A stretch of 64,000 nucleotides of DNA from a virus (lineage: Duplodnaviria; Caudoviricetes). The stretch lies in IMG/VR virus record IMGVR_UViG_2513237176_000002. One strand, written 5' to 3'. Each line of letters starts with the position of its first letter. Within the stretch, counting starts at the first letter, position 1. The notes under the pieces are model-generated. The model was not told where the DNA came from, searched no databases, and saw only the letters and a list, made by a program, of their open reading frames with translations. The position numbers and the translations under genes were made by a program. Positions 8,267-38,299 of the stretch are shown in pieces.

Positions 8267-8899
8267 TCACGTTGTTCCTTTCGTTACGGCAAGGCGGTTG
8301 GTAATGATCAAACACCACGAGCACGCGCAGTCCTCGTAGGCGCAGACCTGGTTACCCCACGAGCACGTCCACTGGTGATCGGCTGGGCAACGGTGCAGCG
8401 AGTCCACCCCATCTGCAGTCCAGTCCAGCTCAACCGCCGGATGTGAGCCGAACCCGGCGCCGACCATGCCACACCGGTTGCAGGCATCGATGAAGTGCTG
8501 CGGGTCGGTGGGTTGCATCCGCTGCCGGTTGTGGATGACGTTGCACATGGGCCGTTCGGCCAGGATCGCCGCCTTCTCCGTAACCTCAACCTCGGTGCGG
8601 GTGGCGTACGGCTCGATCTCGATACGCCGCACGAGCGGCCACCACGGCTTCTTCCGGGAGTGGTTCGACCAGCGGGCGGCGGCATCGCCCGTGATCCCGA
8701 TGTACAGCAGGATGCCGTGGGCGTCGTAGAACCGGTAGAGCACCTGGGCAAGCGGGTCGGGATTGAGCAGGTCGGGTGCCGAGGTTTCTGGCCCGACGTA
8801 TGCGATGGTCCGCTGCTGGTTGGCTGCTGTAGGGGGCAAGGCGTCTCCAAAGTCAAAGGCGCATCGGGGGTGTGCAGTCGGTGGTGCCGCTGCCTTCAC
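8267..8899 (-). CDS. GIY-YIG nuclease-domain protein with C-terminal Cys cluster (start uncertain)
   Basis: LYRFYD...LLYIGIT....RW..H...W......E..AI..ERP..N. Confidence 0.8.
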   Translation of the reverse strand: MKAAAPPTAHPRCAFDFGDALPPTAANQQRTIAYVGPETSAPDLLNPDPLAQVLYRFYDAHGILLYIGITGDAAARWSNHSRKKPWWPLVRRIEIEPYATRTEVEVTEKAAILAERPMCNVIHNRQRMQPTDPQHFIDACNRCGMVGAGFGSHPAVELDWTADGVDSLHRCPADHQWTCSWGNQVCAYEDCACSWCLIITNRLAVTKGTT

Positions 8900-8932
8900 T
8901 CGCGCTGGGTTTGATCTTGTTGGGGGTCTGCC

Positions 8933-9117
8933 GAAGTTACGCGGACCCCTCTTATAGAGAGGGGTCCGTGCGTAACTTCTCGGCGAGACCCTGGCGCGGA
9001 ACTTGGCGTAACTTGCCGCGTATCTTCCTGACCTGCGAAGTTACGGCTTCCCTAGATCGCGTAACTTCGGCCGTAACTTGAAGATGAAAAAGCGTCGCGT
9101 AACTTAAAACGTAACTT
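8933..9117. repeat. Iteron cluster / putative origin 1 (8 x CGTAACTT) with long inverted repeat
   Basis: Forward copies at 8971, 9007, 9060, 9072, 9098, 9110; reverse at 8934, 9038; hairpin 8933-8979 around a TATAG loop. Confidence 0.8.
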
Positions 9118-9139
9118 CCAAACCGCACCGAAACGGACA

Positions 9140-10390
9140 TCACGCGGCCTCGCCAGGAACGTCCAGCCGCGACTCCACCGGGAACCAGCGCACCTCCTGG
9201 CCCGCCCCCTGACCGTCCGGCTCGCGACGGAACAACAAGCCGTCCTCGACATACTTGTCCAGCCGGCGCCGCGCCTTGTTGATGTCCTTCGTCGCCACCT
9301 TCGCCGCGATGTCGAGGTCGAACAACACGATCGCCGCGTCCTTCGCCGACAACCCCATCGACCGGCAGCGGCGCACCAAAGCCAGCAGATCCTTGCTTTC
9401 CTCGTACACCCGCGTGGACACGCCCGTCCGGTTGTTGTGCTCGACCTTGAACGGGCCGACCACATCGGCGGGCTGCTTCAGGTGGATGAACTCGACCTCC
9501 GGATCGCCAGGCTCACCCCACAACATCACCACCGACCCGGCACCGGAGGTCAGCCACGTCGACCCGTACACGCCGTTGATGTTGTTCGGTTTGCCGCCGT
9601 CCGGCCCCGACTTCACGGTGTGGTGCAGCTCCACCAGCTGATGCCCGGCCGTCAACGCGATCTGCCGCGCCCGGTTGTACCCGGCACCCACCTCGTCCTT
9701 GGACAGGCCGATCGCGGCGTCCTTCATGCTGTCGATGACCACCACGGCGGCACCGTGGTGATCGCACATCTGTCGCAGCGTCTCCGGTGACTGCGCGAAG
9801 TCAGCCGGCGGCGGGCCCTCGACCACGCGCAGCATCTCGTCGAGGTATTCGCGGTGTTCGTCCATCCCGGCGAACAGGCGGGCCAGGTTGCGGCGTGCCT
9901 GCTGCGGGCGGTCCATCGCGAGGTAGAGGATGCGGCCTTCGAAGCCTTCGATCGGGTAGCCGAGGACTTCGTCTTGCAGCGACAGGCAGCCTTTGAGTAC
10001 CTGGCTGGCGAGGGTGGTCTTCCCGACACCCTGCGGCCCGGTGATCATCAAAGATTCGCCGCGCGCCCACAGCACTTCGCTGCCGCTGCCCCAGATCGTC
10101 GGTGTCTCGTCGGGCACGTCGAGCAGCCACGACCCTCCGGTGTAGGTGCGGTCGGCGTTGGCGGCGTTGGCTCGCTGCTCGGCGAGTTTCTCCTGTGCCA
10201 GTTGCTCGCGGGCTGCCTCGCGGGCGGCCTGCCGAATGTACTCCCACTGGGTTTCGCGGTAGAGCGCGGCGGCGATCCGCTGGTCGTGGAGGGCGCGCTC
10301 CTCCGGTGGGGCGTCCGGGCGGGGGAGGGGGATGTGCTGCTGGTCGACGTCGGTCCAGTCGATCGGCGGCATGTTGGCGGCGTTCTTCAC
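9140..10390 (-). CDS. AAA_25/RepA-like RecA-fold helicase with C-terminal wHTH, no primase domain
   Basis: Walker A GPQGVGKT, Walker B VVVIDS, LHHTVK, YGST; C-terminal KARRRLDKYVEDGLL. Confidence 0.85.
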   Translation of the reverse strand: MKNAANMPPIDWTDVDQQHIPLPRPDAPPEERALHDQRIAAALYRETQWEYIRQAAREAAREQLAQEKLAEQRANAANADRTYTGGSWLLDVPDETPTIWGSGSEVLWARGESLMITGPQGVGKTTLASQVLKGCLSLQDEVLGYPIEGFEGRILYLAMDRPQQARRNLARLFAGMDEHREYLDEMLRVVEGPPPADFAQSPETLRQMCDHHGAAVVVIDSMKDAAIGLSKDEVGAGYNRARQIALTAGHQLVELHHTVKSGPDGGKPNNINGVYGSTWLTSGAGSVVMLWGEPGDPEVEFIHLKQPADVVGPFKVEHNNRTGVSTRVYEESKDLLALVRRCRSMGLSAKDAAIVLFDLDIAAKVATKDINKARRRLDKYVEDGLLFRREPDGQGAGQEVRWFPVESRLDVPGEAA

Positions 10391-10698
10391 GCGGCCACCT
10401 GCTGCTTCGAGGCATGCCCGCGGAAGTCGCCGGGGCGGGGCCACCGGGCGGTGGCGTCGGCCCTGGCCCGCTCTGTGGCCTGGTCGAACCAGCGGCCCAA
10501 GATGAAGACAGGCTCCGGCGGGTAGGCGGCGTTCTCCTCCGCGATCCGGTTCTCGTAACCCCAGCGCATGGCTTGCGACATCAGCCATGCCACCTGGGCG
10601 CGGTCGAATGTGTCTTGGGTGTTGAGTGCCTCGACCACCCGTTCAAGATCGGGAGTCGTACTGCCGTTCGACGGCAGGCTGAAGCTATCGTGCTGCAC
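10387..10698 (-). CDS. Small RPGDFRG-motif protein (paralog of 37570-37926)
   Basis: Extensive identity to 37570-37926; 4-nt overlap with the helicase gene. Confidence 0.8.
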   Translation of the reverse strand: MQHDSFSLPSNGSTTPDLERVVEALNTQDTFDRAQVAWLMSQAMRWGYENRIAEENAAYPPEPVFILGRWFDQATERARADATARWPRPGDFRGHASKQQVAA

Positions 10699-10781
10699 TA
10701 GCGGAGCTACCTCTCCGTCAGGGCCAGGATCACGGGGACGCCAATCCCCGCCTGGCCCGCTTTGCGTTTCGGGCCAGGAAG

Positions 10782-11006
10782 TCAGGTCATGGACCTGCCG
10801 AGGTGCCGGTAGACGGTCTTCCGCTCTACGTCGAGGCGATCAGCGATGTGGGCGATCGGCACTGCGTCGCCGGCCGCGTCGGTGAGCTTCGCGAGTGCTT
10901 CCTTGTAGCGGCGCTCTGCTTCTTGTTTCTCCTGGTAGAGCGCTACTACGTCCTCGATGTGTTGCTGGACCTCGGGTGTCGGCGGGGTCCACTTCTGGCG
11001 TGCCAC
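10782..11006 (-). CDS. Small HTH regulator
   Basis: IAHIADRLDVERKTVYRHLG; TACCCT-N6-GTG leaderless start. Confidence 0.8.
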   Translation of the reverse strand: MARQKWTPPTPEVQQHIEDVVALYQEKQEAERRYKEALAKLTDAAGDAVPIAHIADRLDVERKTVYRHLGRSMT

Positions 11007-11066
11007 CCGGCGAGGGTAGCGGTTTTGTGTGTCCATCTGTCCCATCCTTGGCCGGTTCATGATTAC

Positions 11067-11131
11067 TGGGACGATCGTATACGCGTTCCCACTTGACACG
11101 CAATCGGCTTGGGGGAAATAATGTTCCCAAG
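11067..11131 (+). promoter_or_regulatory. Housekeeping-sigma promoter overlapped by TGGG..CCCA inverted repeats
   Basis: TTGACA 11093-11098, AATAAT 11117-11122; TGGGA..TCCCA (11067-11091) and CTTGGG..CCCAAG (11108-11131). Confidence 0.65.
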
Positions 11132-11198
11132 CGACACGGAAAACCTGCTCCGAGGTGTTGGCGCACCGAAGGAGCCCAATCGGGAGGTAGCCCGAAAC

Positions 11199-14100
11199 AT
11201 GAACACCAAGCTCAAGGCAGGCGATTCCACGTACATGAACATCACCGACGCCCACGGCGTGCTGCTGTTCGTGGTCCTCGTCCAGCTGTTCACCGACCAC
11301 GTCAGCTTCACCTTCGCCAACCACCCGATCCTCAACCGGGCCATGCCGATCGGTGAGGGCCGCGCCTACCTGCGGTTCCTGATCGACGAGGCCGCGAAGG
11401 GCACCCCCGCCGCGATCATCGAAGACCTCGCCGGCCAGTGGACCAGCGCCGCAGCGGTCGCCGACCAGGCCGAGCAGGACATGCTCGACGACCTGGCCGC
11501 CGACTTCGCGCAGCGTGACGCCGATGCTGCCGCCGATCTCGCCGCCCAGCAGACCGCGACCGCCCGCAGCATGACCAAGGCGTACGGCGACGAGTGGTAC
11601 CGGCTCCGCCACCCGCGCAAGGTCCGGCCCACCCGGACCCGTGTGCACGTGCAGCCGCCCACCGCGGCGATGCTCGACCGGATGCGCCGCCACCGCAACG
11701 GTGTCGTCACCTGTGGGCCCGGCCAGCCGTGGACCCTGCTCGACGGCCTCATCCAGCGCGGCCTCGCCGACCAGGCGAGCGCCGTCTACCGGCCCGGCAC
11801 CCAGATCATCGCCAGCGTGCGGCTCAACGCACGCGGGTGGGCCGCCATCGGGCAGCAGAGCGGGGTGGCGGCATGAACCTCCGGACCTACAAGGCCACCG
11901 CCCGGAAAGCCCACGAGGCGTACACCGCGCTGAAGGCAGCGGCCGAGACCGCCGACTACTCCGACGCCCAGCGCATCTGCAAGGTTCTGAATCCGCAGAT
12001 GCAGGACGCCATCGACGCCCTCCGGCCGCAGGTGTGCCGCGACTGCAACCAGTACGGCAGCCTGCCGATGGACGACAACGGCTGGATCCGTAAGTGCAAC
12101 CACCCCAACGTTCCGGCCTACGACGTGCGCACCGGAGAGGTGTTGGCGTGAACACCACCGCTCGCCGTGCCGCTCACCGACTGGCCCGGACCACCGCCCC
12201 GATTGTCCTGCGCACCTGGCACGGCGTCGAGTTGACCGAAGGCCTGTACGGCGGCCTGCGCGGTTGGCTCATCGGCACCTGCCCCGACAACCCCCGCCTG
12301 CTGCGGCTCAAGCGGACCGGAGCGGACGTGATCCTGTGCTGCATTCCGCCGTCACGGCTGACCGGCTCCCGCACCCTGCACGGCGGCAAGCCGTGCCCCG
12401 GCAACGACTGCACCGAAGGTGCGGCCATCGACCTGGAGGTAACAGCATGAGCCTCGCCTACCTCGCCACCACCGGGAACCGCAAAGTCCACTTCGAGTTC
12501 GCGTCCGGTGCCCTGACCCACATGCCTTCGTGCGGCAGCGGAAACCCGATCGTCGAACGCCTCGCCGAACTCGACGACCTGGACGGCCTCGAAGCGCTGA
12601 TCGTCGCCCTCACCGCAGCTCGGATCGCCCCGCCGCGGGTGTGCCGACGCTGCTTCGGAGCCAAGACGGTCGCCACCTACGCCACCCGATACGCCGAGGA
12701 GGCGTCGTGACCCGCCACTTCATTGCCCGTTGCGTCACCGAGTCCGACGGCATGCACCAGCACGAGTACCGGATCCGGGACACCCGCACCGACCAGGCCG
12801 CCACCATCACCGAGCACCTCCACACGTGGACCGCGGAGCATCTCGAACGCTGGCCCGACGCGAAACCTGTGGATGTTGCCACCCTCGGCGGCCAGTGGGG
12901 CGGCTATGACCTGCTCGGTAAGTACGACACCCTCGCCGAGGCGTGGGCCGGGCACGCCACCGGTGACATCCCGGACGTCGCCTGCCAGGTGGCGTCATGA
13001 GCATCGCGACGTTCCGCTACTACCGCGACGGCAAGCCGGGCTTCACCGGCTACGACACCACCAACCTGACCGCCCAGCAGTACGCAGACCGGAAAGCCGC
13101 CCGCACCAACCCGGACTACGCCGACCAGGTGCACGTGTGGTTCGGGTATGCCGACGAGAGCAGCCCGGACGCTGTTGCGGAGGTGCCGGCATGAGTGACG
13201 TCTTCCGGGTCGGCATCGAAACCGACGGCGGCCGAGTCTGCACCAACTACGACGACATTACCGCCGAACAGGTCACCGACCTGATGCGCCGCTACGCCGA
13301 GCGTGACGGCGACGGCATCCACTCCGTGTCCGGCAGCGGTGCCGCGTTCTGGCCGTGGGAGCAGGTGCACGCCATCCGCGTGGTCCGTGGTCACTTCACC
13401 ACCGAGGAGTATCCGTGACCGGCAACACCGTCGTCGTGATCACCTCGAAGACCGCCCTGTGCGGGCATGCTCACTGCGACCCGTACCGGCGGCGTAACAG
13501 TGTCCTCGATGAGACCGGGGACGTGGTCGTCTACCACGCCTGCGACGACACCCGCTGGATCTTCCGCGACGACGTCTGCCACGGCCTGATCCTGCGCTCG
13601 CGGCGCCTCGACCGTGAGGACGGCACCACCGTGGTGACGCTCGAATCCGACGGCGACCGGTCGTGGCTGGCCCGCACCCCGAACCGGGTGCTGGTGCGGC
13701 ACGACACCTACTACGGGCTGATCGCGAAAGCCGCACGGCGGCTGCTGATGCCGGCCGCGTGCTGCAAGGGCGAGTCGTGAACCAGGCCGACACCCGCATT
13801 GTCGGCACGTGCGCTGGGTGCGGTGGCCGGATCGAACCGGCAGGCGGCCCGTCGTGGCGGCACATCGGCCGGCGGATCGGAGGGCAGCAGCATCCGGCAG
13901 AACCCGACCAGGCCACCCGCGAACGCACGGCGGCCTGTGAGCCCCATTCCACCAGAGACAGCGCACCGACACACTGACCAAGAGCCGAAGGAGACCGCCA
14001 TGACGGATCTGCGTTACGCCGCCGCCCGACCCATCCTGCTGGCCAATCTCGAGCCCGGTGACCAAGTCCATAGCCCGTACGGCTATCGAGTCGTCCACGA

Positions 14101-14487
14101 CATCACCGAGGACGTGAACGGCGACATCATCATCTACTTCTGGGACGAGGAACCGATCCGGCGGATCCCGGGCGCAACTGTTCAGGCTATGAAGAGGATC
14201 CACTGATGCCCGAGATCACGCTCACGCCCACCCGTGCCGCCGTCCTGCGGGCCGTTGCCGACGGCGAGGTGAAGCACCGCCGAAACTGGGGGCGCGAGCC
14301 CGATGAGGACGTGTGGCGGCCCGCTACGGGCGGCTCGAAGAAGGTCAACGCCACGGTGGAATGGCTGCGACAAGTTGGTCTCATCGTGCTGGGACGGCCC
14401 GAGCATGCGTCCATGTACGCGCCTAGCTCGTGGCAGCTCACCGAGGCCGGCGAGCGTTGGCTGGCCGAGAACGAGGAGAACACGTGA
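11199..14487 (+). other. Rightward operon of about 10 hypothetical phage genes
   Basis: Starts 11199 with GGGAGG RBS; chained overlaps; includes 12997-13194, 13191-13418 and a wHTH-like gene at 14206-14487. Confidence 0.7.
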
Positions 14488-14632
14488 TGCCTGAGACCCG
14501 CACCAGCATGGAGGCGCCGGCTTCTCTGCTCAAGACTTGAGCATCAGTCTTTGGCATCCGCCCCGACCAGCCGCCGTGCAGCGAGGCACACGGCGGCTTT
14601 CTGCTGCCCGGCCAGCAGTAATGATCAGCTGA

Positions 14633-15229
14633 TCAGGCACGGAAGACCCACACCTCATGCGGCTCCGGCACCTCGATGTACCAGGACCAGTGTGGATCCC
14701 CGCCCTCCGTCGCATCCCTGTCGCACGGGCAATGCCACCGCTCACCCGGATCCCCTGGCACCGGCGGCCAGAATCGAATGTGCACCGCGTCCACGCGCGG
14801 TCCGACACTCTTGTCCAACTGGACCTTGATGGTCTTCCCGCCCTCCGCAACCGGTGAAAAGCTCAACGGCGAACGGGAACCGCCGGTGATGGCGTCACCT
14901 GATATCCGGTAGGTGCGAGGCAAGACGAACTCCAAAAAGCGATCCTCATGTCCGCCTCTGGGGTTCGTTGCTGTGGTGAGCGATGCCGTGATGTCAGGCT
15001 CAGTCGGGCGTAGGTCACGGTGTTCGCGTTCTGCTTCGGTTCGAGCGACCGCGGCAGCCGATTCCGCGGAGCTCTTGGCATGCTCCGCTGACTCCTTGGC
15101 CGCGTCAGCGGACCGGTCGGCTGCGAGCGAGGACTTGTCGGCAGCGTCGGCGTTTTGCTTGTTGTAGCGAGCGGTGACCCCGGCAACGACGAGGGCGAGG
15201 ATGCTGACGATCAGTGCAGCGAGAGCCAT
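14633..15229 (-). CDS. Moron-like N-terminally anchored membrane protein
   Basis: MALAALIVSILALVVAG TM plus A/S-rich linker; atypical codon usage; opposite to flanking genes. Confidence 0.65.
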   Translation of the reverse strand: MALAALIVSILALVVAGVTARYNKQNADAADKSSLAADRSADAAKESAEHAKSSAESAAAVARTEAEREHRDLRPTEPDITASLTTATNPRGGHEDRFLEFVLPRTYRISGDAITGGSRSPLSFSPVAEGGKTIKVQLDKSVGPRVDAVHIRFWPPVPGDPGERWHCPCDRDATEGGDPHWSWYIEVPEPHEVWVFRA

Positions 15230-15421
15230 GAGCGGAGACGATAGATCGGCTGTTCGGTTGACGTTCGTCCGATCCGGCTCATCTGTTCGGCCCATCGATG
15301 TATGGGTTTCCGCAAAGGCCTCCACCGTCTGCATGATCGACGGTCGTGCGCGCGGGCCATAGCCGCCGATCGCTGCTGCTAGCTACCGTGCTGATCTACA
15401 ACGGACACGGGGAGCCCACTC

Positions 15422-15925
15422 ATGCCATCCCTCGTCGACCTGCACATCCGTCTCAACCAACAAGGCACCGAACACCTCACCCTTCTCGGCCGCGCTGCAG
15501 GCTGGGGCACCTACCTCGCCTTCGACCCACCGAAAGTCGATCCGATCACCGGGGTCTGCGAGGTCCGCCTGCAGCAGCACCTTCTGATCCGCTTCGACAC
15601 TGACGACGACTGGAAGCGGCTGCTGATTCGGGAGGTCCACCCGTGGAATCCTGCAACGCCGCTCTCCGCCGTCCCGCCCCTGGAACGAATCGAAAAGGCG
15701 GTGAACAAGGCTGCCTACCGCCCTGGCCTTGAGCGGCGTCTGCTGGTCCAACCGGCCACGGTGGAGGAGGTGCGTCAGATGCTGGGCGGTGAACCAACTG
15801 TCTGGTTCGACTCGTACGAACGTCGCGCCGCGAGGCCGGCTCGCGTACGCCGCCGAATCCGGCGAGGGACTCCGCGCCCTGAGGTGGGCTGGTCAACGCC
15901 GGGCCCGCCAGCCGGGCCGCAGTGA
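15422..15925 (+). CDS. Hypothetical protein
   Basis: GGGGAG RBS; 167-aa ORF. Confidence 0.55.
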   Translation: MPSLVDLHIRLNQQGTEHLTLLGRAAGWGTYLAFDPPKVDPITGVCEVRLQQHLLIRFDTDDDWKRLLIREVHPWNPATPLSAVPPLERIEKAVNKAAYRPGLERRLLVQPATVEEVRQMLGGEPTVWFDSYERRAARPARVRRRIRRGTPRPEVGWSTPGPPAGPQ

Positions 15926-15984
15926 CCTCCGGCGGCTTGCTCGGCGGCTGGACGTCCCCCAGCGGCGAGCCGCCACCTCTCCGA

Positions 15985-16398
15985 TCAATGGGTGGCGAAA
16001 GCGGCCGCCAAGCGGCCCGCCGTTCCCCAGATGCGTTCGTGCGTTGCGTCGTACCCGATTGGGTCGAGTGCTCGCAGTGAGAAGTGAACGCCGCACACGA
16101 AGAGGTCCGCTCTGGTCTGGCTGAATGCGCCAGCTGCTGTCACCTTGCCGAACAGGTACTCGTCGTGTTCGCCGCGGTCGTCGTACAGGCTAAGTCCCAG
16201 AAGCCGCATGGCGATCTCGTCGGCGTAGGCGCCGTTCTGCCAGTCCATCGCCCAGCCGCCCGTGCCGCCCTGGGTGCGCCAGTGGTCCAGGTAGGGAAGG
16301 TAGGAGCGGATCCCTTGGTCCCGTAGGGCTTGCAAGACCCGGGCGAGTGCATCCAGCGCGATTTGGGGCTCGTGGTGTTGCTCGGACAACACGATCAT
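15985..16398 (-). CDS. Hypothetical protein translationally coupled to imuA'
   Basis: ATGA overlap with imuA' stop; 137 aa, MIVLSEQHH... Confidence 0.65.
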   Translation of the reverse strand: MIVLSEQHHEPQIALDALARVLQALRDQGIRSYLPYLDHWRTQGGTGGWAMDWQNGAYADEIAMRLLGLSLYDDRGEHDEYLFGKVTAAGAFSQTRADLFVCGVHFSLRALDPIGYDATHERIWGTAGRLAAAFATH

Positions 16399-17291: not shown

Positions 17292-17370
17292 GTCGCTCCC
17301 CGTGCCGTTGCTTCGGCTGCCGGGGAAGGGGCATGCCACCTGCGCTTATTCGAGCCGGTTCGCGGTCGGC

Positions 17371-17386
17371 TCGAACACCCGTTCTA
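17371..17386. promoter_or_regulatory. Actinobacterial LexA (SOS) box upstream of imuA'
   Basis: TCGAAC-ACCC-GTTCTA, one mismatch to TCGAAC-N4-GTTCGA; minus-strand TAGCCT -10 at 17393-17398. Confidence 0.8.
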
Positions 17387-17982: not shown

Positions 17983-18028
17983 TGTTGGTGTCCTTTCGTG
18001 TCGTCCTCCCTGGTGACACCAAGTTTAT

Positions 18029-30505: not shown

Positions 30506-31345
30506 ATGGAAGACCCCGGCACCCTCGCCAACATCGAAGACCCGCGCCAGCGGGCCACAGCCGCCCACGCCCTCATCGAGGACTACCAGGCGGCCATCGG
30601 CGAACTGTCACGCATGCGCCGAGACGCCCTCGAAGAACTCCTCGCCGGCGACATGACCCAAACCCAGCTCGCCGACATGCTCGGCGTCACCCGCGGGCGT
30701 GTCTCCCAGCTCCTGTCCGCCGGCACACGCGCCGAACGGGCATTCCTCGGCACGGGCAGCGTCACCATCGCCCTCGGCGGCAAGCATGAGGCAGGGAAAG
30801 ACAAGCCCGGCGCCGTGGTGTCCGCCGAAGCGATGGCCGCCTACGAGCGGTTGGCGGAGCTTGCCCGCACTCTCGGCCTCAAAGCCGACTACGAAGTAGT
30901 GCCGCCGCCTGGGTTCGTCAAACTGAACCGGCCCAACCTGATCGTCGCCTGCGGACCCCGGCTGTCGCCGCTCGTACAGCAGCTCCTCGAGTCCGACAAC
31001 AACATTCAGTTCGCCAAAGATGCGGACGGGTGGCACCTCGTCGAACTACAGACTCGGACCGTGCATCGCTCGCCGAGCGACGGCGGCCGCAACGCTGACA
31101 TCGCCTACATCGGCCGGCTTCCCCGACCCGACGGCAAAGGCACGTTCCTCTACATGGCAGGCATCCACGCCATCGGCACAGCGGGCGCCGCGCACTTCAT
31201 CGAACACAACCTTGCTGACCTGCACAAGGAAACCAAGGGCCGCCGCTTCTCCATGGTCATCCGCTGCGAGTTCGATCCCGAGACACGACAAATCACTGGC
31301 AGCGAACGCCTGTCCCCGATCTACCGGCAAGACGGTGCGGCATAG
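30506..31345 (+). CDS. Putative repressor: N-terminal HTH plus alpha/beta C-terminal domain
   Basis: TQTQLADMLGVTRGRVSQLL; C-terminal NLIVACGP...YMAGIHAIGTAGAA. Confidence 0.7.
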   Translation: MEDPGTLANIEDPRQRATAAHALIEDYQAAIGELSRMRRDALEELLAGDMTQTQLADMLGVTRGRVSQLLSAGTRAERAFLGTGSVTIALGGKHEAGKDKPGAVVSAEAMAAYERLAELARTLGLKADYEVVPPPGFVKLNRPNLIVACGPRLSPLVQQLLESDNNIQFAKDADGWHLVELQTRTVHRSPSDGGRNADIAYIGRLPRPDGKGTFLYMAGIHAIGTAGAAHFIEHNLADLHKETKGRRFSMVIRCEFDPETRQITGSERLSPIYRQDGAA

Positions 31346-31396
31346 TGAAACCAGCCGTGCCGGCGCCACCAAACCGGGACGCCTCGTTGAAGAAGC

Positions 31397-32233
31397 GTGA
31401 GGACGACTGACGTGCGCGCAATGCTCGCCACCGAGCCCGGCAACCCCGACAAGCCCAACGAAGACTGGGCGCTCGTCTCACCGGGCCTTGCTGTCGTCCT
31501 CGACGGCGCCACCGCCCGCACCGACACCGGCTGCGTTCACGGTGTCGCCTGGTTCGCGCACCAGCTCGGCGCCGCCATCGTCGCCAATGCAGCCGTCCGC
31601 GCCGCGAACCTCGCCGGATGCCTCGCGTCCGCCATAGACCGTGTTGCCAGCCTGCATCCGCAATGCGACCTCAACCATCCCGGCACACCGTCCGCCGCTG
31701 TCGGCATCATCCGCATCCACGGCAACGAACTCGAATACCTCGTCCTCAGTGACATCTCCATCTGCCTCGCCACGCGCGAAGGCGGGCGGCAGGTCATCAC
31801 CGACAGCCGGGTCAGCGCCACCGCCCGCCGCGTACGAACCGAACTCGCGAACCTTGCCATCGGCAGCGACGAGCAAGCCGAAGCGCTGCTGCGCATGAAA
31901 CGGGCCGAACTCGCCGCCCGGAACCGGCCCGGCGGCTACTGGGTGGCAGCCAACGACCCGACCGCGGCAGAGCATGCCATCACCGGCGCGGTGCCGCTAC
32001 GCACCATCGAAGACCTCGTCGTCCTGACCGACGGCGCCGCCCGGATCGTCGATCCGTTTGGGCTGATGAACTGGAACGAGTTCGTTGAATCGCTGCGCGA
32101 CCAAGGGCCAACGGAACTCCTCCGGAGAGTCCGCGAAGCCGAGGCCAAAGACCCCGACGGGCAGCGTTGGCCGCGCAACAAACGCAGCGACGACGCCACC
32201 ATCCTGCACCTCAGCGACATTCCCCGCGGGTAA
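31397..32233 (+). CDS. PP2C-like phosphatase-domain protein
   Basis: NED, VLDGA, LSD, LTDGA and SDDAT metal-binding motifs. Confidence 0.85.
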   Translation: MRTTDVRAMLATEPGNPDKPNEDWALVSPGLAVVLDGATARTDTGCVHGVAWFAHQLGAAIVANAAVRAANLAGCLASAIDRVASLHPQCDLNHPGTPSAAVGIIRIHGNELEYLVLSDISICLATREGGRQVITDSRVSATARRVRTELANLAIGSDEQAEALLRMKRAELAARNRPGGYWVAANDPTAAEHAITGAVPLRTIEDLVVLTDGAARIVDPFGLMNWNEFVESLRDQGPTELLRRVREAEAKDPDGQRWPRNKRSDDATILHLSDIPRG

Positions 32234-32338
32234 GGGCAGCGTTACCGCCGCTCACAATGCCCTGGTGCGGGATCCCTAGCAATCATGCGATCCTAGACTC
32301 CGGGCTTGACACCGGGCCCGATGAGACCAGGGACCCGC

Positions 32339-33178
32339 ATGAACAACCCCGACCTGCAGCAGTGGCTCCTCGCACCCGACGGCATCGCCACCCGCCTCCG
32401 TGCGCTGCGCGGCAACACCAGAGGAACGGTGATCGCCGAAGCGGCCGGCATGCGCACGTCGAAGCTGTCAAAGCTCGAACTCGCCCAGCAGGAACCGACC
32501 GCCGACGACATTCGAGCCATCGTCGCGGCCGCCGGACAGCCAAAGCGGGTCGCCGACGAACTCGTGGCGAAGCTGGCCGAGAAGCCGCAGGTTCGCAGTT
32601 CGGCGCGGGTGAGCCGGTTCGGGCAGGCCGCCAGCCAGCAACGCCTTAACGCGCTGCTCGCCAAGAGCAGCCACGTCAGGTTGTTCGACGCCACCTACCT
32701 GCCCCGGCCGATGCAAATCCCTGAGTACGCGGCTGCCGTTCTTGAGGCTGCAGGCCGGCTACGGGGCATCACCGACAGCCCAACGCAGGCAGCTGCCGCA
32801 CTCGCGGCCTCATCGCAGTACCTGTACGAACCCAGCCGCACATTCGAGATCGTCATCGCCGAACCGGCCCTGCAATGGGCGGTCCTTCCGGTGGCTGGCA
32901 TGCGCATCCAACTGGAGCGGGTCCTCGACCTGGCGCGGCTGCCGAACGTCGACCTGCGAGTCCTGCCACTCCGCCAGCCCGGCATCGTTCCGCCGCCCTA
33001 CGGGTTCGGTCTCGTAGACGGCGCTGGCTACACCGACGGCCTTGAAGGGCTAGACGACCTCGCCGATGTGCGGCTTGCCGGTCACATCGAGGCGATGGGC
33101 CGCCTCGCAGAGGCATCGGCGGCTGGCAAGGAAGCCAGCAATCTGATCAGGGAAGCGCTCAGGAGGCTCGCGGCATGA
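32339..33178 (+). CDS. XRE HTH + DUF5753 (Scr1 antitoxin-like) regulator
   Basis: SKLSKLELAQQEP HTH; LP..MQ.PEYA..VL, VIAEPAL, MRIQLERV..L..LPNVDLRVLP. Confidence 0.8.
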   Translation: MNNPDLQQWLLAPDGIATRLRALRGNTRGTVIAEAAGMRTSKLSKLELAQQEPTADDIRAIVAAAGQPKRVADELVAKLAEKPQVRSSARVSRFGQAASQQRLNALLAKSSHVRLFDATYLPRPMQIPEYAAAVLEAAGRLRGITDSPTQAAAALAASSQYLYEPSRTFEIVIAEPALQWAVLPVAGMRIQLERVLDLARLPNVDLRVLPLRQPGIVPPPYGFGLVDGAGYTDGLEGLDDLADVRLAGHIEAMGRLAEASAAGKEASNLIREALRRLAA

Positions 33179-33915
33179 CCTTCCGCAGAAACGAGGGCAG
33201 TGGACCGCCGATCGTGCTCATCGCGCAGATGGGTTGCGGCGCCGACATCTGGAAACCCCTGCTGCCGCACCTCGCCGGTCTTGAAGTCGTCACCTACGAC
33301 CGGCCCGGCACCGGTGACACACCGCCGCGGCCGGCACCGAACCCGGCACTGCCGCACAGCGTGTTCGCCGCCGAACTCGCCCAGCTCCTCGACGACCAGC
33401 ACGTGGCCGGTGCGGTCGTGCTGGTCGGGCACTCGTTCGGGGCACTCATTGCCCGCGCGTTCGTCGCCGCCCACCCGGACCGGGCGGCAGGGCTGGTCAT
33501 CGTCGACGGCAGCATCCCGCAGTTCCACCTACACCCCAGCGCCGACCCGAAACTCGACGGGGACGGCTCGGACGCCACCGAAATCGACGTGGTCACCGGC
33601 CAGGTTGAAATCCTGTCCGCACCAACCCCCGACGTGCCCGCGCTGGTTCTGACTCGCACCCACGGCCGGTGGGACGGCGAAAACCCGCCACCCCACCCCG
33701 CCGTCGAAGACCTGTGGCAGGTCAGCCAGCGCCTGCTCGCCCGCGACCTACGCTGCCCGCTGCTGGTCGCCGACAACTCCGGACACCAGATGCAACATGA
33801 AGCGCCCGAGCTCGTCGCCTACGCCATCCGGGCCGTCCACACCGCGGTACGGTCCGGAGGACCCGTGCGCGTCGACCCAGCGGCGGTAGCGGACGCCGGA
33901 GGTCAGCTCGACTAG
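33175..33915 (+). CDS. Alpha/beta hydrolase
   Basis: DRPGTG, GHSFG nucleophile elbow, SGHQMQHEAPE. Confidence 0.9.
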   Translation: MTFRRNEGSGPPIVLIAQMGCGADIWKPLLPHLAGLEVVTYDRPGTGDTPPRPAPNPALPHSVFAAELAQLLDDQHVAGAVVLVGHSFGALIARAFVAAHPDRAAGLVIVDGSIPQFHLHPSADPKLDGDGSDATEIDVVTGQVEILSAPTPDVPALVLTRTHGRWDGENPPPHPAVEDLWQVSQRLLARDLRCPLLVADNSGHQMQHEAPELVAYAIRAVHTAVRSGGPVRVDPAAVADAGGQLD

Positions 33916-33957
33916 CGGCGGCCCGCACCCCACGCGGTGCGGCACGATCGGCTCCGG

Positions 33958-34356
33958 TCAGTCCTCGATCAGCAGCGTTTTCTGGCCGTTCTTCACGCTC
34001 GCATACCAATGCGGTTTGGACGTCATCACGTCAACGTCCATGTGCAGCGCCATCAGCGCCGCTGACGCCCGATCATGGGCGCCGGTCATCTGCTGCAACG
34101 CCACCAGCGAATCCCAGTCCTCCCCGTCGTCAACGATCAGGAACGTCGCCGGATGCTTCAGCAGCAGATCCAGGCGCTCCCGGTCGACCATCCCGGTCTG
34201 GTCGCCAGCCTGCACCAGGCACCACAGCGGGATCAGGACCGCGCCGCCCTCGTCGTCGATCTCGGCGAGGGTCTCACCCACCGCGAGGGAACCGCGCACC
34301 CACGACGTGACCGCGGTGGTGTCGAACACCAGGCAGACGTCACGCGGCTGGGTCAT
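33958..34356 (-). CDS. PIN-like (VapC-like) protein
   Basis: LVFDTTA N-terminal strand, 132 aa, coupled to a small upstream gene; later acidic residues degenerate. Confidence 0.6.
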   Translation of the reverse strand: MTQPRDVCLVFDTTAVTSWVRGSLAVGETLAEIDDEGGAVLIPLWCLVQAGDQTGMVDRERLDLLLKHPATFLIVDDGEDWDSLVALQQMTGAHDRASAALMALHMDVDVMTSKPHWYASVKNGQKTLLIED

Positions 34357-34532
34357 GCGGTCCGGGTGCGCAGGCTCGCCAGGAACGCGGCATTGCCGTC
34401 AGGGTCGCGATGGGCGGCCGCAGACTCGAGCCGTCGGCGCCGGGCGCGGGCTTTGCCCTCGTCGGTGACGGTCATGCCCATCCGCTCGAAAACCTCGTCC
34501 GAGCTGAGCTTCGAACTGGTGTCCTGTTCCAT
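34353..34532 (-). CDS. Small putative antitoxin
   Basis: 59 aa; ATGA overlap with the PIN gene; TACCCT-N6-ATG leaderless start. Confidence 0.55.
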   Translation of the reverse strand: MEQDTSSKLSSDEVFERMGMTVTDEGKARARRRRLESAAAHRDPDGNAAFLASLRTRTA

Positions 34533-34580
34533 GGTCCCAGGGTAGACCGCATCCCTTGCCAAGCGGTATCGGCTGCCTGC

Positions 34581-34898
34581 CTACAACACCCCGAAGTGCA
34601 AGAACACGACGCAGTGCTCGTCCTCCCGCACCTCGTAGTAGGCGACGACAGGGCGCCCGTCGACGTGCACAGGCAGCCGATACAGGTCGAAGACCCTGGC
34701 GCGGACCCCGAACCAGTCTTCGAACGGACCCTCCTCGTTGAGGAACGGGTCGGTGTCGGCGTACGGGGCGTCCTGGCGGCTGTAGTGCCAGCGCTCGACT
34801 TCCGCAATTACCTCCGGGGGAGGCAGTGTGCAGTTCCTCCAGTCGCGCACCGCCTCCGGGAAGTTGTCCAGCCGCCATTTGTCGGGCCAGTCGGGCAT
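34581..34898 (-). CDS. RelE/ParE-like small protein (putative toxin)
   Basis: 105 aa, N-terminal helices then VVAYYEVREDEHCVVFLHF strands; GAAGGAG RBS. Confidence 0.5.
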   Translation of the reverse strand: MPDWPDKWRLDNFPEAVRDWRNCTLPPPEVIAEVERWHYSRQDAPYADTDPFLNEEGPFEDWFGVRARVFDLYRLPVHVDGRPVVAYYEVREDEHCVVFLHFGVL

Positions 34899-34918
34899 GC
34901 GTGCTCCTTCGGGCGGGA

Positions 34919-35365
34919 TCAGCCCCCGGTGTGCGCCTTCCGCCGGGCGGCGAAGTCCTCTGCTTCGCCCGCGGTGGGTGAGCTCTGGCGTTCGGCGGGG
35001 CGCCGGAACCAGTCGGTCAACCACGTCCACTCGATGCGGGGGTCATCGTCGTGGCGGCTAGCCAGCTGCCAGGCGCTGGAGATCTGCACCAGGGACAGCA
35101 GGTCGGCGTCGCTCATGTCGGCGTACCGGTGCAGGGTGTAGCCGATGAACCCGAGTTGCCGGTTATTCAGCGGCGCCTCGTCGGTGTCGACATCGACGTG
35201 CACCCCGGTCGGGGTGGCGAAGATCGGCTCGGCGAACAGTGGGGCGCCTGTGCCGGCAAGGTAGTGGCCTTGGCAGAAGAACAGCAGCAGCTGTTTGCGG
35301 GCTTCGGTCTGGTCAGGGCGTCGTGCGTCTATGGCTTTGATGACGGAGTTGGCGCTCGAAGTCAT
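34919..35365 (-). CDS. Panacea/DUF4065 (SocA-like) antitoxin
   Basis: ANSVIKAI......KQLLLFFCQGHYLA..GAPLFAEPIFA...G...Y......L......AW; TACCGT-N6-ATG leaderless start. Confidence 0.7.
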   Translation of the reverse strand: MTSSANSVIKAIDARRPDQTEARKQLLLFFCQGHYLAGTGAPLFAEPIFATPTGVHVDVDTDEAPLNNRQLGFIGYTLHRYADMSDADLLSLVQISSAWQLASRHDDDPRIEWTWLTDWFRRPAERQSSPTAGEAEDFAARRKAHTGG

Positions 35366-35607
35366 CGGTGCACGGTACTGCTCACGGTGAGATCGAATCG
35401 TTCCGCTTTGCAGGCCACCCACCCATTGGTCGTCTGGCTGATTGGGGGGTCGGTTGATCGTTGAGGTGGTCATCTGCGTGCCCCCGTTCGCGCCGCCGTC
35501 AACACGAAAGGTATCGATGTGATTACTCAGGGTGTGTCGGATCGAGGACTCGTGAGGGTGGGGCATGTTTCCTCCATCTGCAAATAGCGGGGTTGTGATC
35601 AGACGGT

Positions 35608-35946
35608 CTAATTGGCCTCGGTGCGGGTTCCGGCGCGTTGGGTGTTGAGCCACTTCTGATGTTCGAGTTCGGTTGCCAACTCTTCCGCCGTCGGGTCCGA
35701 CTGCTTGGGGCCAAGAACGCGCCATAGGTTGGTCGACGCGCTGACCTCCTCGACCTCGCCGCCGTAGTCGGCCGGCGTGACGGCCGCAATCACGCGAACG
35801 TTGCCGCGTTCATCGCGCTGGATCAGCCAGCCGGCAACCGGGTTGGCAGTCCAGGCTGGTTCGTTCGTCTGCTGGTCCTCGAAGACGTAGACCGCGCGCC
35901 ATCCGTGGGGTGCGGGCTTGAAGTCGATCGTGGTCCAGTCGGTCAT
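35608..35946 (-). CDS. Hypothetical protein
   Basis: GGAG RBS; PA..GWRAVY...PVAGW. Confidence 0.65.
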   Translation of the reverse strand: MTDWTTIDFKPAPHGWRAVYVFEDQQTNEPAWTANPVAGWLIQRDERGNVRVIAAVTPADYGGEVEEVSASTNLWRVLGPKQSDPTAEELATELEHQKWLNTQRAGTRTEAN

Positions 35947-35996
35947 GTCGTACTCCGTTCATCCAAGGTCAAAGGCGCGTCGAGGGGATGCCAGTG

Positions 35997-36167
35997 AGGG
36001 GTCTCGCGTGTGCCCCGCTAAGGGGTCTCAGGGGTCTCGCGTTGAGACCCCTACCGCAACCTGGGGCCCTATACGTAACGATGAATTTGTTGTTTACCTG
36101 GGGAAACGCAAACGCGATCTTGAGGTTTTTTGGCTGAGGGGTCTCAAACCGAGACCCCTAGACCCCT
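35997..36167. repeat. Iteron cluster / putative origin 2 (6 x AGGGGTCTC plus 1 partial) with AT-rich core
   Basis: Forward at 35997, 36021, 36030, 36137; reverse at 36044, 36151; partial at 36160; AT-rich stretch 36070-36096. Confidence 0.8.
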
Positions 36168-37573
36168 TAACGTGAAAAGTATTTGTGTCCGCTCTGGCCG
36201 CGGTACGCGATGCCTTCGACGCGGATCTCACCGGCGACCTCCAGTACGTCAACCGCCTGATCCATAAGAGAGCCGAGCGCCCCGAGCTTGCCCCGCAGCT
36301 TCGCACCCGAGACACCCTCGTTGCCCGCAACGCGGATGTAGCGCCGCACCCGGTCGACAGCCCGCCTCAGCCGCTCAGCCTCAACCCGCTCTTCGACGAC
36401 CAGCGTGCGTTGCGCTTCGGCTTCACCGGTACGCCGGTTTTGGTCGCGGCCAACCTCCTGCAGCGCCCGTTGACAACGGCCCCGCTGATCATCGGACTCG
36501 GCCATGACCGCGCCCGACAATTCCCAGTCCTCGTCGAGGATGCTGGTTCGCCCGTCGAGGATTGCCAGGGCTGCCGCGACCTTCTCGCGAGTGAGCAACG
36601 CGTGCCCGTCCAAGGCGTCGCCGTCACCGCGTCGGCGGGCCTTGCGGGCGGCGATGATGGTTTCGCGGGCGGCTTCGCAGATCGGCATGACCTTACGCTC
36701 GTTGCGCCCGTGCCCGGTGAACGGCAGCTCGGTCCAGTTCGGCGCCTGCCACACAACTGGGGTGGGCTCCTCCACATCGTCGTCCGGGGCGTCCGGGTCG
36801 TCGCAGGACAGCCACACGAACCGCTGCGGCGTGCCGCCGTCGATCTCGTCGTCGTTGAGTAGCACCCCAGACCGCTTTGGCTGAATGCCCGCCAGCAGGC
36901 ACAGCCGGTACGAATGCTCCGGCACCATGAGCCGTTTCGTCTCGTCCACGTAGAAGAACCCGAGTTGCTCACCCATGGCGGCCTGCCGCAGCTGCGGCAT
37001 GATGGTGGAGGATTGGCGGCCCTTGAGCGAGGCAAGGGTGTCGATCTCCTGAATGGTGACGATGGCGTTGGCGTTCACCATCTCGATCTCGCCTTTGACG
37101 TTGCGCATGAACATGTGGGCAATGCCCTCGCCGGAACCCAGCGGGTACACCGGGGCAACCCGCTGGTCGAGGTCCACGGCTTGCTTGGCGACTTTCTCCG
37201 AGGCGCCCTTGGCTGCTCCTGCCGCGCCGACGAGGCCGATGAACAGGTTCAGCGATGCTTCGGTGCCGACGATTGCTGGGAGTTGGATTCGAGGCGGGGT
37301 CGCAGCGACTACGTGTGCAAGAACGGCGCCCAAGGTGGCCCACGGTGCGACGAGTCGAGCGCGGGCGAACTGCTGGATATGGGTGAGGATCGGCCTGCTC
37401 TTCCAGAAGTGCTCGCGCACGTTGTCGATCCGGTCCGCCTCGGCGGCCGTGAGAACGCCGCGCATCACAGGAGCGGTGCGCTCGGGGGTGACCGGCACCG
37501 GTTCGTCGGCCGGAGGTGCGCTTTCGTTGAGAAGCTCGTTGTCCCAGTGGACTGCGGTGGGGTCGTAGGTCAC
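36167..37573 (-). CDS. DUF3987/YfjI-like replication ATPase with C-terminal wHTH, no primase domain
   Basis: LNLFIGLVGAAGAAKG, GSGEGI, IQEIDTL, AGIQP, GTPQRF; C-terminal HTH-like segment. Confidence 0.75.
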   Translation of the reverse strand: MTYDPTAVHWDNELLNESAPPADEPVPVTPERTAPVMRGVLTAAEADRIDNVREHFWKSRPILTHIQQFARARLVAPWATLGAVLAHVVAATPPRIQLPAIVGTEASLNLFIGLVGAAGAAKGASEKVAKQAVDLDQRVAPVYPLGSGEGIAHMFMRNVKGEIEMVNANAIVTIQEIDTLASLKGRQSSTIMPQLRQAAMGEQLGFFYVDETKRLMVPEHSYRLCLLAGIQPKRSGVLLNDDEIDGGTPQRFVWLSCDDPDAPDDDVEEPTPVVWQAPNWTELPFTGHGRNERKVMPICEAARETIIAARKARRRGDGDALDGHALLTREKVAAALAILDGRTSILDEDWELSGAVMAESDDQRGRCQRALQEVGRDQNRRTGEAEAQRTLVVEERVEAERLRRAVDRVRRYIRVAGNEGVSGAKLRGKLGALGSLMDQAVDVLEVAGEIRVEGIAYRGQSGHKYFSR

Positions 37574-37926
37574 GCGGCCACCTGCGCAGGTGGGGTGTCG
37601 CGACCCCGGAAGTCGCCGGGCCGTGGAAGTCGTGCAGCGGCATCAGCCTCCGCACGCTCGGCGGCTTGGTCGTACCAGCGGCCCAGCGTGAACACCTTCG
37701 GCGGAGGCCAGGTTGCGTTCTCTTCGTCCACGCGCGCCCGATAGCCGGCGTGGAAGCCGCCGGCCTCTGTGATGCCGAGTTCGTACCCCGACTGGAAGGC
37801 GGCGTGGATCAGCCACGCGGCTTGCGCGCGATCGAAGCTGTCCTGGGTCCGAAGCGCCTGGGCGACGCGGTCGGCGTCGGGTTCTGGCGGAGACTCCCGC
37901 TGCGGGGTGCCATCAGTTACCGTCAT
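37570..37926 (-). CDS. Small RPGDFRG-motif protein (paralog of 10387-10698)
   Basis: TQDSFDRAQAAWL...EENA.WPP..VF.LGRWYDQA.ERA.ADA.AR.PRPGDFRG...QVAA. Confidence 0.8.
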   Translation of the reverse strand: MTVTDGTPQRESPPEPDADRVAQALRTQDSFDRAQAAWLIHAAFQSGYELGITEAGGFHAGYRARVDEENATWPPPKVFTLGRWYDQAAERAEADAAARLPRPGDFRGRDTPPAQVAA

Positions 37927-37990
37927 GGAGACTCCTGCGTACGAGTTAGTGCGCGTCGAGGGCCGTGGTGATTGAGCACCGCGGCCCTTG

Positions 37991-38299
37991 TCATTTCTGG
38001 GGTTCGGCTGGCGCAGGGGCAGGCCAGGTGATCGAAAACCCCATTGCGCGGGCTTCGTCGGCCCACTGCAGAAGCCGGAGCAGGTAGGGCCGCATGTTGC
38101 GGGGGCCGGGCCGATTGTTCTCCCAGTTGCTCATCGAGCCGTCCGTGACGCCGAACTCGGCGGCGGCTTGTTCTTGAGTGAGTCCCTGGCTGCGGCGTAG
38201 CAGCTTGCGGATCGCAGGCGGCGGAAGAAGTTCGGCAGGGTCTTCCGCCGGTGGAGGGCTGATGTTTGCGCTGGTGCGCGTATTGGTGGTGATGGTCAT
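37991..38299 (-). CDS. XRE/Cro-like HTH regulator
   Basis: LRRSQGLTQEQAAAEFGVTDGSMSNWENN..P; TAGTCT-N7-ATG. Confidence 0.85.
   Translation of the reverse strand: MTITTNTRTSANISPPPAEDPAELLPPPAIRKLLRRSQGLTQEQAAAEFGVTDGSMSNWENNRPGPRNMRPYLLRLLQWADEARAMGFSITWPAPAPAEPQK

Follow-up and report, generated by a model that had tools for sequence, protein, structure and literature searches.

Two putative helicase-iteron replication modules with a shared small orphan protein in a composite integrated island of an actinomycete genome

Background

In the pri-rep-ori segments of Staphylococcus aureus pathogenicity islands (SaPIs), the C-terminal domain of the initiator helicase recognises an iteron origin that lies directly downstream, Rep and iterons are matched in specificity, and the Reps are drawn from different helicase families, of the DUF927 type and the Primase_Cterm/D5 type (Ubeda et al. 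2007, via PMC7581432). The same logic was shown biochemically for Cch2 of the staphylococcal cassette chromosome mec (SCCmec), whose C-terminal domain, like that of SaPI Rep, binds iterons just downstream of its own gene, and two small, mutually unrelated proteins, LP1413 and MP, are encoded in SCCmec directly upstream of the helicase genes for Cch and Cch2 (PMC7581432). The layout of a helicase gene followed by iterons is already known from SaPIs, P4 and SCCmec (PMC7581432). Two loci with this layout are described here in a 64,000-nucleotide stretch of DNA (IMG/VR record IMGVR_UViG_2513237176_000002, Duplodnaviria, Caudoviricetes; hereafter the window), each consisting of a small gene, an overlapping gene for a nucleoside triphosphatase (NTPase) and an iteron cluster. 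With a probability of about one half, both are read as replication units of the SaPI Rep, P4 alpha and SCCmec Cch2 type in which the helicase cassettes have been swapped and the small protein would be an obligatory co-translated accessory factor.

The two modules resemble P4 alpha, a D5-type helicase whose C-terminal winged-helix domain binds the origin iterons, but P4 alpha has its own N-terminal primase, its ori and crr do not lie directly after the gene, and we know of no small coupled partner for it. Judged from sequence, the modules would also share with SaPIs an initiator helicase whose C-terminal domain reads the iterons immediately downstream. They differ from SaPIs, in which a primase of the archaeo-eukaryotic (AEP) type is encoded upstream of rep or fused to it, in that none was found here and the upstream gene encodes an acidic orphan protein of about 100 aa; the hosts here are Actinomycetota, and the conserved non-iteron boxes of the modules have not been described for SaPIs. 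The LP1413-Cch and CCPol-MP-Cch2 arrangements of SCCmec are similar in that a small protein of no known family is encoded immediately upstream of a self-loading helicase (PMC7581432). There, however, two unrelated small proteins accompany two unrelated helicases, whereas here one small family accompanies at least three unrelated helicase families; SCCmec has an A-family polymerase and the modules have none; and a mostly beta structure is predicted for MP, LP1413 being a winged helix, whereas the small protein described here is modelled as helical with one hairpin and gave no fold match.

Integrative and conjugative elements of actinomycetes (AICEs) were taken as single elements of about 9-24 kb with an integrase and attachment (att) sites, a gene for replication and transfer genes of the TraB/FtsK type. 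In the literature on AICEs, replication proteins of the RepSA, RepAM and Prim-Pol types are described, most replication proteins are unrelated and iterons are absent (PMC2440964). The orfA-repAM pair of pMEA300, from the AICEs of Amycolatopsis, is comparable in that a small open reading frame (ORF) is transcriptionally coupled to an initiator gene, the 8-bp repeats bound by the initiator are at the 3' end of that gene's region, and TraB-type transfer genes are present; it differs in that RepAM belongs to another protein family and its repeats are located within the coding sequence, in a hairpin with a proposed nick site (PMC2440964).

Results and discussion

Organization of the two modules

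The window corresponds to G000:C1:2133767-2197766 of a single-contig genome of 8.77 Mb with 70.8% G+C. Both modules lie on the minus strand, at 8846-11006 (module 1) and 35962-38305 (module 2), and follow one order, i.e. a gene for a helix-turn-helix (HTH) protein, a structured leader, the small gene, the NTPase gene, iterons and a shared 17-mer. In module 1, small protein A (103 aa, isoelectric point (pI) 5.3; 10387..10698, minus strand) precedes ATPase A (416 aa; 9140..10390, minus strand), an AAA_25 RepA/DnaB-like NTPase with a basic C-terminal domain that is proposed as an initiator helicase. In module 2, small protein B (118 aa, pI 4.9; 37570..37926, minus strand), a paralog of A with a 14-aa insertion, precedes ATPase B (468 aa; 36167..37573, minus strand), which appears to be a divergent DUF3987/D5-like NTPase and has a predicted basic C-terminal helix-helix-hairpin domain. 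Small proteins A and B are 55% identical (E 2e-27) and are the sole copies of their family, the orphan 'RPGDF...VAA' family, in the genome. BLASTP detected no similarity between ATPases A and B. Both junctions read ...CAGGTGGCCGCG TGA, the GTG start codon of the NTPase gene overlapping the stop codon of the small gene by 4 nt, and on account of this GTGA overlap the start of ATPase A was moved to 10390. The first-pass annotation of the window had proposed the common gene order with a hairpin between the HTH gene and the small gene, the paralogous small proteins, the dissimilar ATPases, the translational coupling and the presence of different iteron clusters right after the ATPase stop codons, and all of these features were recovered.

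Linkage and exchange of the helicase genes

Homologs of the small gene were collected from isolate genomes, metagenome and Logan contigs, and IMG/VR, which yielded 23 distinct loci with a readable downstream gene. The next gene encoded a same-strand NTPase of 397-508 aa at 21 of the 23 loci, as the first-pass annotation had anticipated, and a 4-nt GTGA or ATGA overlap was present at 20 of these 21. The junction, CAGGTGGCCGCGTGA, was conserved irrespective of the helicase. The linked NTPases comprised AAA_25 proteins of at least three lineages, true DUF3987 proteins, divergent DUF3987-like proteins (including ATPase B) and D5_N+DUF5906 proteins. NTPase type is scattered as if at random on a maximum-likelihood tree of 18 small proteins, where it requires 12 changes (minimum possible, 6; mean of shuffled assignments, 11.5), and both strongly supported clades of small proteins mix three or four NTPase types. 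Pairs of loci give the same picture from either side, in that the small proteins of L004 (AAA_25) and L005 (DUF3987) are 71% identical, whereas ATPase B and the ATPase of L007 are 78% identical and are accompanied by small proteins that are only 37% identical. These comparisons support a reading in which helicase and iterons would form one exchangeable specificity unit, with the small gene and Box 2 (see below) as its constant flanks.

Iterons and conserved boxes of the origins

Origin A (8846..9139, minus strand) contains eight iterons AAGTTACG, all within 8934-9117, where 0.34 copies would be expected in the whole window, together with Box 1 CGCAGGTCA (9029-9037), an AT-centred palindrome (about 8945-8965) and Box 2 GCGCCTTTGACTTTGGA (8846-8862, minus strand). 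Origin B (35962..36166, minus strand) contains seven iterons of the form AGGGGTCTC/GAGACCCCT in two clusters around an AT-rich spacer, and GAGACCCCT occurs six times exactly and once with one mismatch, all within 35997-36167; a Box 1 variant, GTTTCCCCAGGTAA, lies at 36094-36107 and Box 2 GCGCCTTTGACCTTGGA at 35962-35978 (minus strand). In both origins the iterons start within about 25 nt of the ATPase stop codon. Clear iteron arrays followed the ATPase gene in 15 of 17 origins; L005 and L022 had weak repeats only. The layout of origin A is the same in L010, and the palindrome and order of elements are common to module 1, L010 and L019.

Identical iterons were shared only between closely related ATPases. 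The iteron AAGTTACG of module 1 recurs in L010, the ATPase of which is 72% identical to ATPase A; AGACCCCT is found in module 2, L007 and L008, so that the last two loci combine the iterons of origin B with ATPases related to B; and CCGCGCAC is found in L003 and L004. The remaining iterons were each seen at one locus, namely AACCTACG in L019, AAAGTCACG in L025, GGGTGGACA in L016, AGTTCGCCA in L023, AGGGGGACAGAG in L018, GGGGCGACA in L024 and AGGGTGGCAAT in L011. Where iterons differ, the last 85 aa of the ATPases have diverged faster than the core, with identities of 57% (core) and 27% (C-terminus) between ATPase B and the ATPase of L016, and of 54% and 31% between those of L003 and L023. In ATPases A and B these C-terminal 85 aa are basic, with a pI of 8.9 in A and 9.7 in the other of the two.

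Two further sequences were conserved irrespective of helicase type. Box 1 (approximately GCGTTTCCGCAGGTCAG) is situated among the iterons of 15 of 16 origins, whereas the genomic frequency of its octamer core predicts about 0.04 copies per origin, and Box 2 (GCGCCTTTGACYTTGGA) lies at the far edge of the origin in 10-11 of 12 origins, just before the ribosome-binding site of downstream genes that are not homologous to one another. The first-pass annotation had reported a 25-bp motif shared by the ends of the modules; a shared motif is indeed present there and only there, at 8846-8862 and 35962-35978 (both minus strand), in the form of the 17-mer GCGCCTTTGACYTTGGA, for which these are the sole copies in the genome at up to one mismatch. 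The exact 14-mer of Box 1 does not occur elsewhere in the genome, and this lack of further copies of either box weakens the idea that the boxes are reiterated sites for a host factor. Box 2 was also considered as a sigma-70-type promoter and rejected, as it is followed by no consistent -10 element and, in several loci, by a start codon 6-17 nt away.

The two helicases

The AAA_25 assignment of ATPase A made in the first-pass annotation was borne out by Pfam (7e-15; 55.5 bits against a cut-off of 27, above the gathering threshold), and the protein also matched phrog_6012, 'DNA helicase' (2e-114). Its closest phage relative is the 'DNA helicase' gp143 of the cluster J mycobacteriophage Redno2 (46-48% identity), which differs in that the gene upstream does not overlap it and is unrelated to the small family. 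The other AAA_25 matches in the genome were considered as comparison modules lacking the small protein and were discarded as housekeeping RadA and DnaB.

ATPase B, for which the label 'DUF3987-like' had been proposed, has no Pfam match, and no DUF3987 match was found in the whole genome. Its PHROG matches (1e-69 and 9e-60) cover only the C-terminal halves of two 'DNA polymerase/primase' families, phrog_28894 (536-978 of 994) and phrog_11515 (360-751 of 787). The closest relatives are two proteins annotated as 'DNA primase/polymerase', gp56 of Gordonia phage Reyja and gp85 of mycobacteriophage DS6A (44% identity), the match in the 772-aa Reyja protein spanning residues ~365-670. Because ATPase B aligns to the helicase half only of these phage proteins, it lacks their Prim-Pol half. 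Reyja gp56 differs further in that its N-terminal Prim-Pol region occupies about 360 aa and the next gene overlaps it, leaving no room for iterons. Relatives of ATPase B at L016, L009 and L007 gave sub-threshold DUF3987 matches (E 0.002-0.008, about 16-18 bits against a cut-off of 27), and hhalign of ATPase B against the DUF3987 protein of L005 returned nothing, the profile being shallow. The proposal is weakly supported in this form, and ATPase B may work like a DUF3987/D5 helicase rather than being a demonstrated member of that group. In an AlphaFold2 (AF2) model, residues ~400-468, the sole part modelled with confidence, were predicted as helices and a beta-hairpin with a predicted local distance difference test (pLDDT) score of 83-89.

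The small protein family and its possible partners

A word-index search returned 35 relatives of the small protein, and a profile search of 1.84 billion representatives returned 133 family members, all of 51-202 aa. The family is present in 7 of 400 other genomes of the same taxonomic family. Searches with tblastn of phage and plasmid collections gave no match for the small protein, nor did the DNA of module 1 match those collections. No Pfam, PHROG or NCBIfam match was obtained for A or B and no convincing Pfam or NCBIfam match among 130 family members, 7 of which matched phrog_37611 (function not known); fused forms were not found among longer proteins, which is weak evidence. The family has a core motif, F-x-R-x-Q-V-A-W-L-M...R-W-G-Y-E...R-V-D-E-E-N...P-P...R...D-A-x-A-R-x-P-R-P-G-D, followed by a variable tail, and it is acidic (median pI 5.1-5.2). 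The C-terminus is Ala-Ala in 29 of 33 close homologs, as compared with 2.3% of long ORFs in this genome. An AF2 model of small protein B (mean pLDDT 76) showed three helices, one beta-hairpin and a disordered RPGDF...VAA tail. A sequence search of the PDB gave no match; with the model, Foldseek against the PDB gave a best E of 0.98, VIA-align wide a best Z of 4.8, to generic long helices only, and the ESM Atlas nothing above 0.79.

An acidic protein made in step with basic initiators might bind the helicases directly, as a loader, chaperone or anti-initiator, which corresponds to the adaptor proposed in the first-pass annotation; a DNA mimic could, for instance, keep the basic C-terminal DNA-binding domain capped up to its own degradation. 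Coupled translation implies that the two proteins are made in roughly equal amounts, the opposite charges and the degron-like tail would suit such a role, and the SCCmec small proteins encoded upstream of helicase genes interact with replication proteins (PMC7581432). A direct partner would, however, have to accommodate unrelated folds (RecA-like in AAA_25, SF3-like in DUF3987/D5) and C-terminal domains with no detectable similarity, sequence variation in the small protein does not follow ATPase type, and self-loading has been described for SaPI Rep, P4 alpha and Cch. Direct binding is therefore considered quite unlikely.

The upstream half of the modules bears on another explanation. In module 1, the HTH gene (10782..11006, minus strand) encodes 74 aa from GTG 11006, with in-frame ATG codons at 11036, 11045 and 11060 as alternative possible starts, shows weak HTH_7, HTH_11 and HTH_20 matches, and shares 84% identity with its positional counterpart in L009; its leader (10699..10781, minus strand; RNA fold -37.4 kcal/mol) consists of nested stem-loops followed by a small hairpin over the Shine-Dalgarno (SD) sequence of the small gene, a class of sequence and structure also found in L007, L009 and L010. 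In module 2, the HTH gene is of the XRE type (104 aa; 37991..38305, minus strand; HTH_3 3e-6, with matches to PHROG repressor/regulator families), and the leader (37927..37990, minus strand; RNA fold -26.3 kcal/mol, z -3.1) forms a hairpin with a 14-bp stem and no U tract on the coding strand, a class also found in L004 and L005. The first-pass annotation had described the HTH genes as leaderless; a scan for consensus promoters found none on the minus strand, and more than one in-frame start codon could be used. Across L004, L005, L007, L009, L010 and the window, the two leader classes go with the small-protein N-terminus (MQH... or MTVTD...) instead of with ATPase type, so that another mosaic joint seems to lie within the small gene or immediately ahead of it.

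With an HTH gene, a hairpin that lacks a U tract, the small gene and then the replication gene, this order copies lambda cro - terminator - cII - O, and the small protein could accordingly be a short-lived early regulator of the CII or antirepressor kind, its linkage to the NTPase reflecting the layout of the operon and mosaic joints between genes. The Ala-Ala end suggests an unstable protein, leader class and small-protein N-terminus co-vary with the upstream region instead of the ATPase, a TTGAC hexamer resembling a -35 element is present in Box 2 in front of the next operon, and orfA of pMEA300 is dispensable for replication, its disruption having caused no clear replication defect (PMC2440964). 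On the other hand, the model has neither an HTH nor any other DNA-binding fold, the family is acidic, and Box 2 lacks a consistent -10 and, in several loci, is too close to the next start codon for a promoter. A mere neighbour would moreover be expected to drift, whereas the 4-nt overlap has been kept through at least 12 cassette exchanges, even in homologs at E ~1e-6. Taken together, a regulatory role appears unlikely.

Search for a primase

The absence of a visible primase, remarked on in the first-pass annotation for the window, extended to the 105-kb island that contains it. Domain searches found no match to Prim-Pol, Toprim_2, Toprim_3 or the DnaG zinc ribbon in the island (AEP PF01896 and Toprim_4 were not searched), and tblastn of host DnaG, two host Prim-Pols and the N-terminus of Reyja gp56 against the island gave nothing below E 0.05. 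With none detected there, the source of priming must be the host or some unrecognised component.

The latter might be the small protein itself, either as a minimal primase or as a cofactor that makes a host polymerase prime, as MP does with CCPol. Besides the missing primase, the absence of the Prim-Pol part that is fused in the phage relatives of ATPase B and the conserved acidic residues of the small protein (the DEEN motif, D95 and D105) would fit, and there is a precedent for a small priming cofactor that could not be recognised from its sequence (PMC7581432). Yet the protein has only ~100 aa, is largely helical, lacks zinc-binding residues and shows no similarity to any primase; hhalign found it unrelated to the Prim-Pol half of Reyja gp56 and to the gene upstream of the Redno2 helicase. 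No element-encoded polymerase adjoins the small gene, host DnaG could serve, and a primase is not essential in SaPIs (PMC7581432). A priming function of this kind is thus regarded as very improbable.

The island and its sub-elements

The window lies within an island of low G+C (~67%) bounded at both ends by a perfect 37-bp att direct repeat, ACATGAGCATGGAGATGGCGGCGTGGAACTCGATGT, located at G000:C1:2133586-2133622 (window -181..-145) and G000:C1:2238922-2238958 (window 105156..105192), giving an island of 105.3 kb. The sole tyrosine integrase of the region is encoded just inside the left copy (window 1-1314), and no serine recombinase was found in the whole genome. The 37-bp repeat spans the start of a host gene (MSMEMAAWNSMYHAMHRQ...) and TTGACCTC lies ~48 nt upstream of each copy, so that a new promoter and 5' end for the interrupted gene seem to come with the element. 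Phage tail genes, including a tape-measure gene (56850-59942), are present inside the island. A third replication helicase, of the DnaB type (476 aa; window 82689-84119, G000:C1:2216455-2217885, minus strand), has an AAA_25 match, an N-terminal AEQAVLG motif and no small-family gene upstream. A further replication function is represented by a 272-aa gene at 47858-48676 (plus strand), between the transfer operon and the tail genes, which matches the replication-initiator/DnaD-like families phrog_1456, phrog_4707 and phrog_186.

Module 2 lies back to back with a divergent putative Spd/TraB-type transfer operon (38447..45176, plus strand), which is syntenic with the leftward operon of L005, a 41.5-kb metagenome contig that carries a true DUF3987 helicase where module 2 has ATPase B; protein identities with L005:1-4971 are 37-83% over the matched stretches. 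The flanks of module 2, including the putative TraB operon, are syntenic with L004 and L005, and those of module 1 with L003, L007, L009 and L010. Module 2 has no integrase or att site of its own, the island containing one tyrosine integrase and one pair of 37-bp repeats. This pattern of synteny indicates that the modules are probably the replicons of two related sub-elements in a composite island rather than one replicon with two variants. The first-pass annotation had envisaged a single modular replicon; its constant small protein and exchangeable ATPase/iteron pair agree with the data, and the modules are read here as two co-resident replicons. An arrangement of three elements in tandem at one att site was considered and discarded, since no third att copy (up to 9 mismatches) was found within the island.

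Several other features were recorded in the neighbourhood. A gene encoding a GIY-YIG endonuclease-like protein follows origin A (8267..8843, minus strand; phrog_3312 'endonuclease' 3e-22, weak Pfam GIY-YIG), with a probable TTG start at 8843 after GGAG, and may act as a homing-type endonuclease in favour of cassette exchange; in L004 (5381-5929), L005 (5336-5929) and the P0022 contig, its homologs are instead found upstream of the small gene. A near-consensus promoter at 11093-11122 (plus strand; TTGACA, 18-nt spacer, AATAAT) drives the gene at 11109-11876, which is divergent from module 1 and whose homologs in L003, L009 and L010 are equivalently placed. A 79-nt direct repeat with 76% identity (13338-13416 and 50272-50350) reflects the paralogous genes 13355-13780 and 50095-50352, and homologs of the former adjoin the module in L003, L007 and L010. 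No Rfam family was matched in the window. The genome of the window falls in the same GTDB genus as the one with the Paractinoplanes deccanensis locus, L021 being 100% identical to L003.

Model of replication and weighing of the evidence

In the preferred model, a self-loading initiator helicase (A or B) would read its own 8-9-bp iterons through its basic C-terminal winged-helix-like domain and open the AT-rich centre of the origin directly after its stop codon. Helicase gene and iterons would constitute a cassette that has been exchanged many times between constant flanks, one being the small gene, the last codons of which would give the SD sequence and the overlapping start of any following helicase gene, and the other Box 2. 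Each module would be the replicon of a separate, related sub-element now residing in the shared att-bounded island, and the two may carry different cassettes because two related sub-elements share the island, where identical replicons would be expected to interfere. The small protein would work through protein contacts with something common to all versions of the module, as independence from the helicase family points to a common target, and the acidic charge and lack of a DNA-binding fold point to contacts with protein. Candidates for such contacts are the priming machinery or replisome of the host, given that no primase was detected in the element, or the basic DNA-binding ends of the initiators, and the Ala-Ala tail might lead to ssrA-like turnover that limits initiation.

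Several observations weigh against this model. The AF2 model of full-length ATPase B, built from a 4-sequence alignment, had a mean pLDDT of 42 and the core was not modelled. The Walker A motif of ATPase B, GAAGAAKG (GLVGAAGAAKGAS, residues ~113-124), is atypical, with Ala for the usual Gly before the Lys and Gly for Ser/Thr. Two of the 23 loci lack an NTPase, L012 having a partial homolog followed by a 64-aa ORF and L026 an in-frame stop on a short contig. The Ala-Ala codons double as the SD sequence and start of the next gene, so that part of the conservation of the tail lies at the nucleotide level. The small protein found no fold match with Foldseek or VIA-align, and as an acidic protein it is a poor candidate for binding Box 1 or Box 2. 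Finally, the result for pMEA300 orfA means that position alone is no proof of a role in replication.

The odd Walker A motif also raises the question of whether either module, or both, is an inactive relic left by elements that fused into the island, which would likewise account for a single integrase and a single att pair alongside three or more replication modules. No gene is disrupted, however, the iterons and boxes are present in full and agree with those at related loci, and the GAAGAAKG variant is conserved in L007 and L008, while the more distant L009 has GPAGTGKD. Decay of this sort is considered improbable.

Among the possible roles of the small protein considered here, an adaptor to the replisome or priming machinery or a licensing factor would rank first, followed by a neighbouring early regulator, then by a direct helicase partner or anti-initiator, and last by an MP-like priming cofactor. 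A more specific version, in which the small protein and the boxes GCGTTTCCGCAGGTCAG and GCGCCTTTGACCTTGGA would form a helicase-agnostic licensing or priming device on which any self-loading initiator helicase, RecA-type or SF3-type, could run a primase-less replicon, is considered rather unlikely. Such a device would dock host primase or the replisome at a fixed site in the origin, its level being set by ssrA-like proteolysis through the Ala-Ala end; if true, it would represent a new class of replication accessory factor and would explain the free swapping of helicase-iteron cassettes.

Conclusions

The locus had been proposed as an undescribed system. The helicase-iteron replicon is of a known kind, and it is the invariant small protein and the two origin boxes that seem to be its undescribed parts. 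Replication modules of integrated actinomycete elements are poorly understood, and the module described here is recurring and clearly bounded. It offers a natural experiment on which features of its context an initiator helicase requires, and at least nine iteron types could provide orthogonal helicase/iteron pairs for vector design in Micromonosporaceae. The small protein is a candidate for a helicase-independent accessory factor of primase-less replicons; should it prove to be only a regulator, the finding would come down to a well-documented case of phage-style module exchange.

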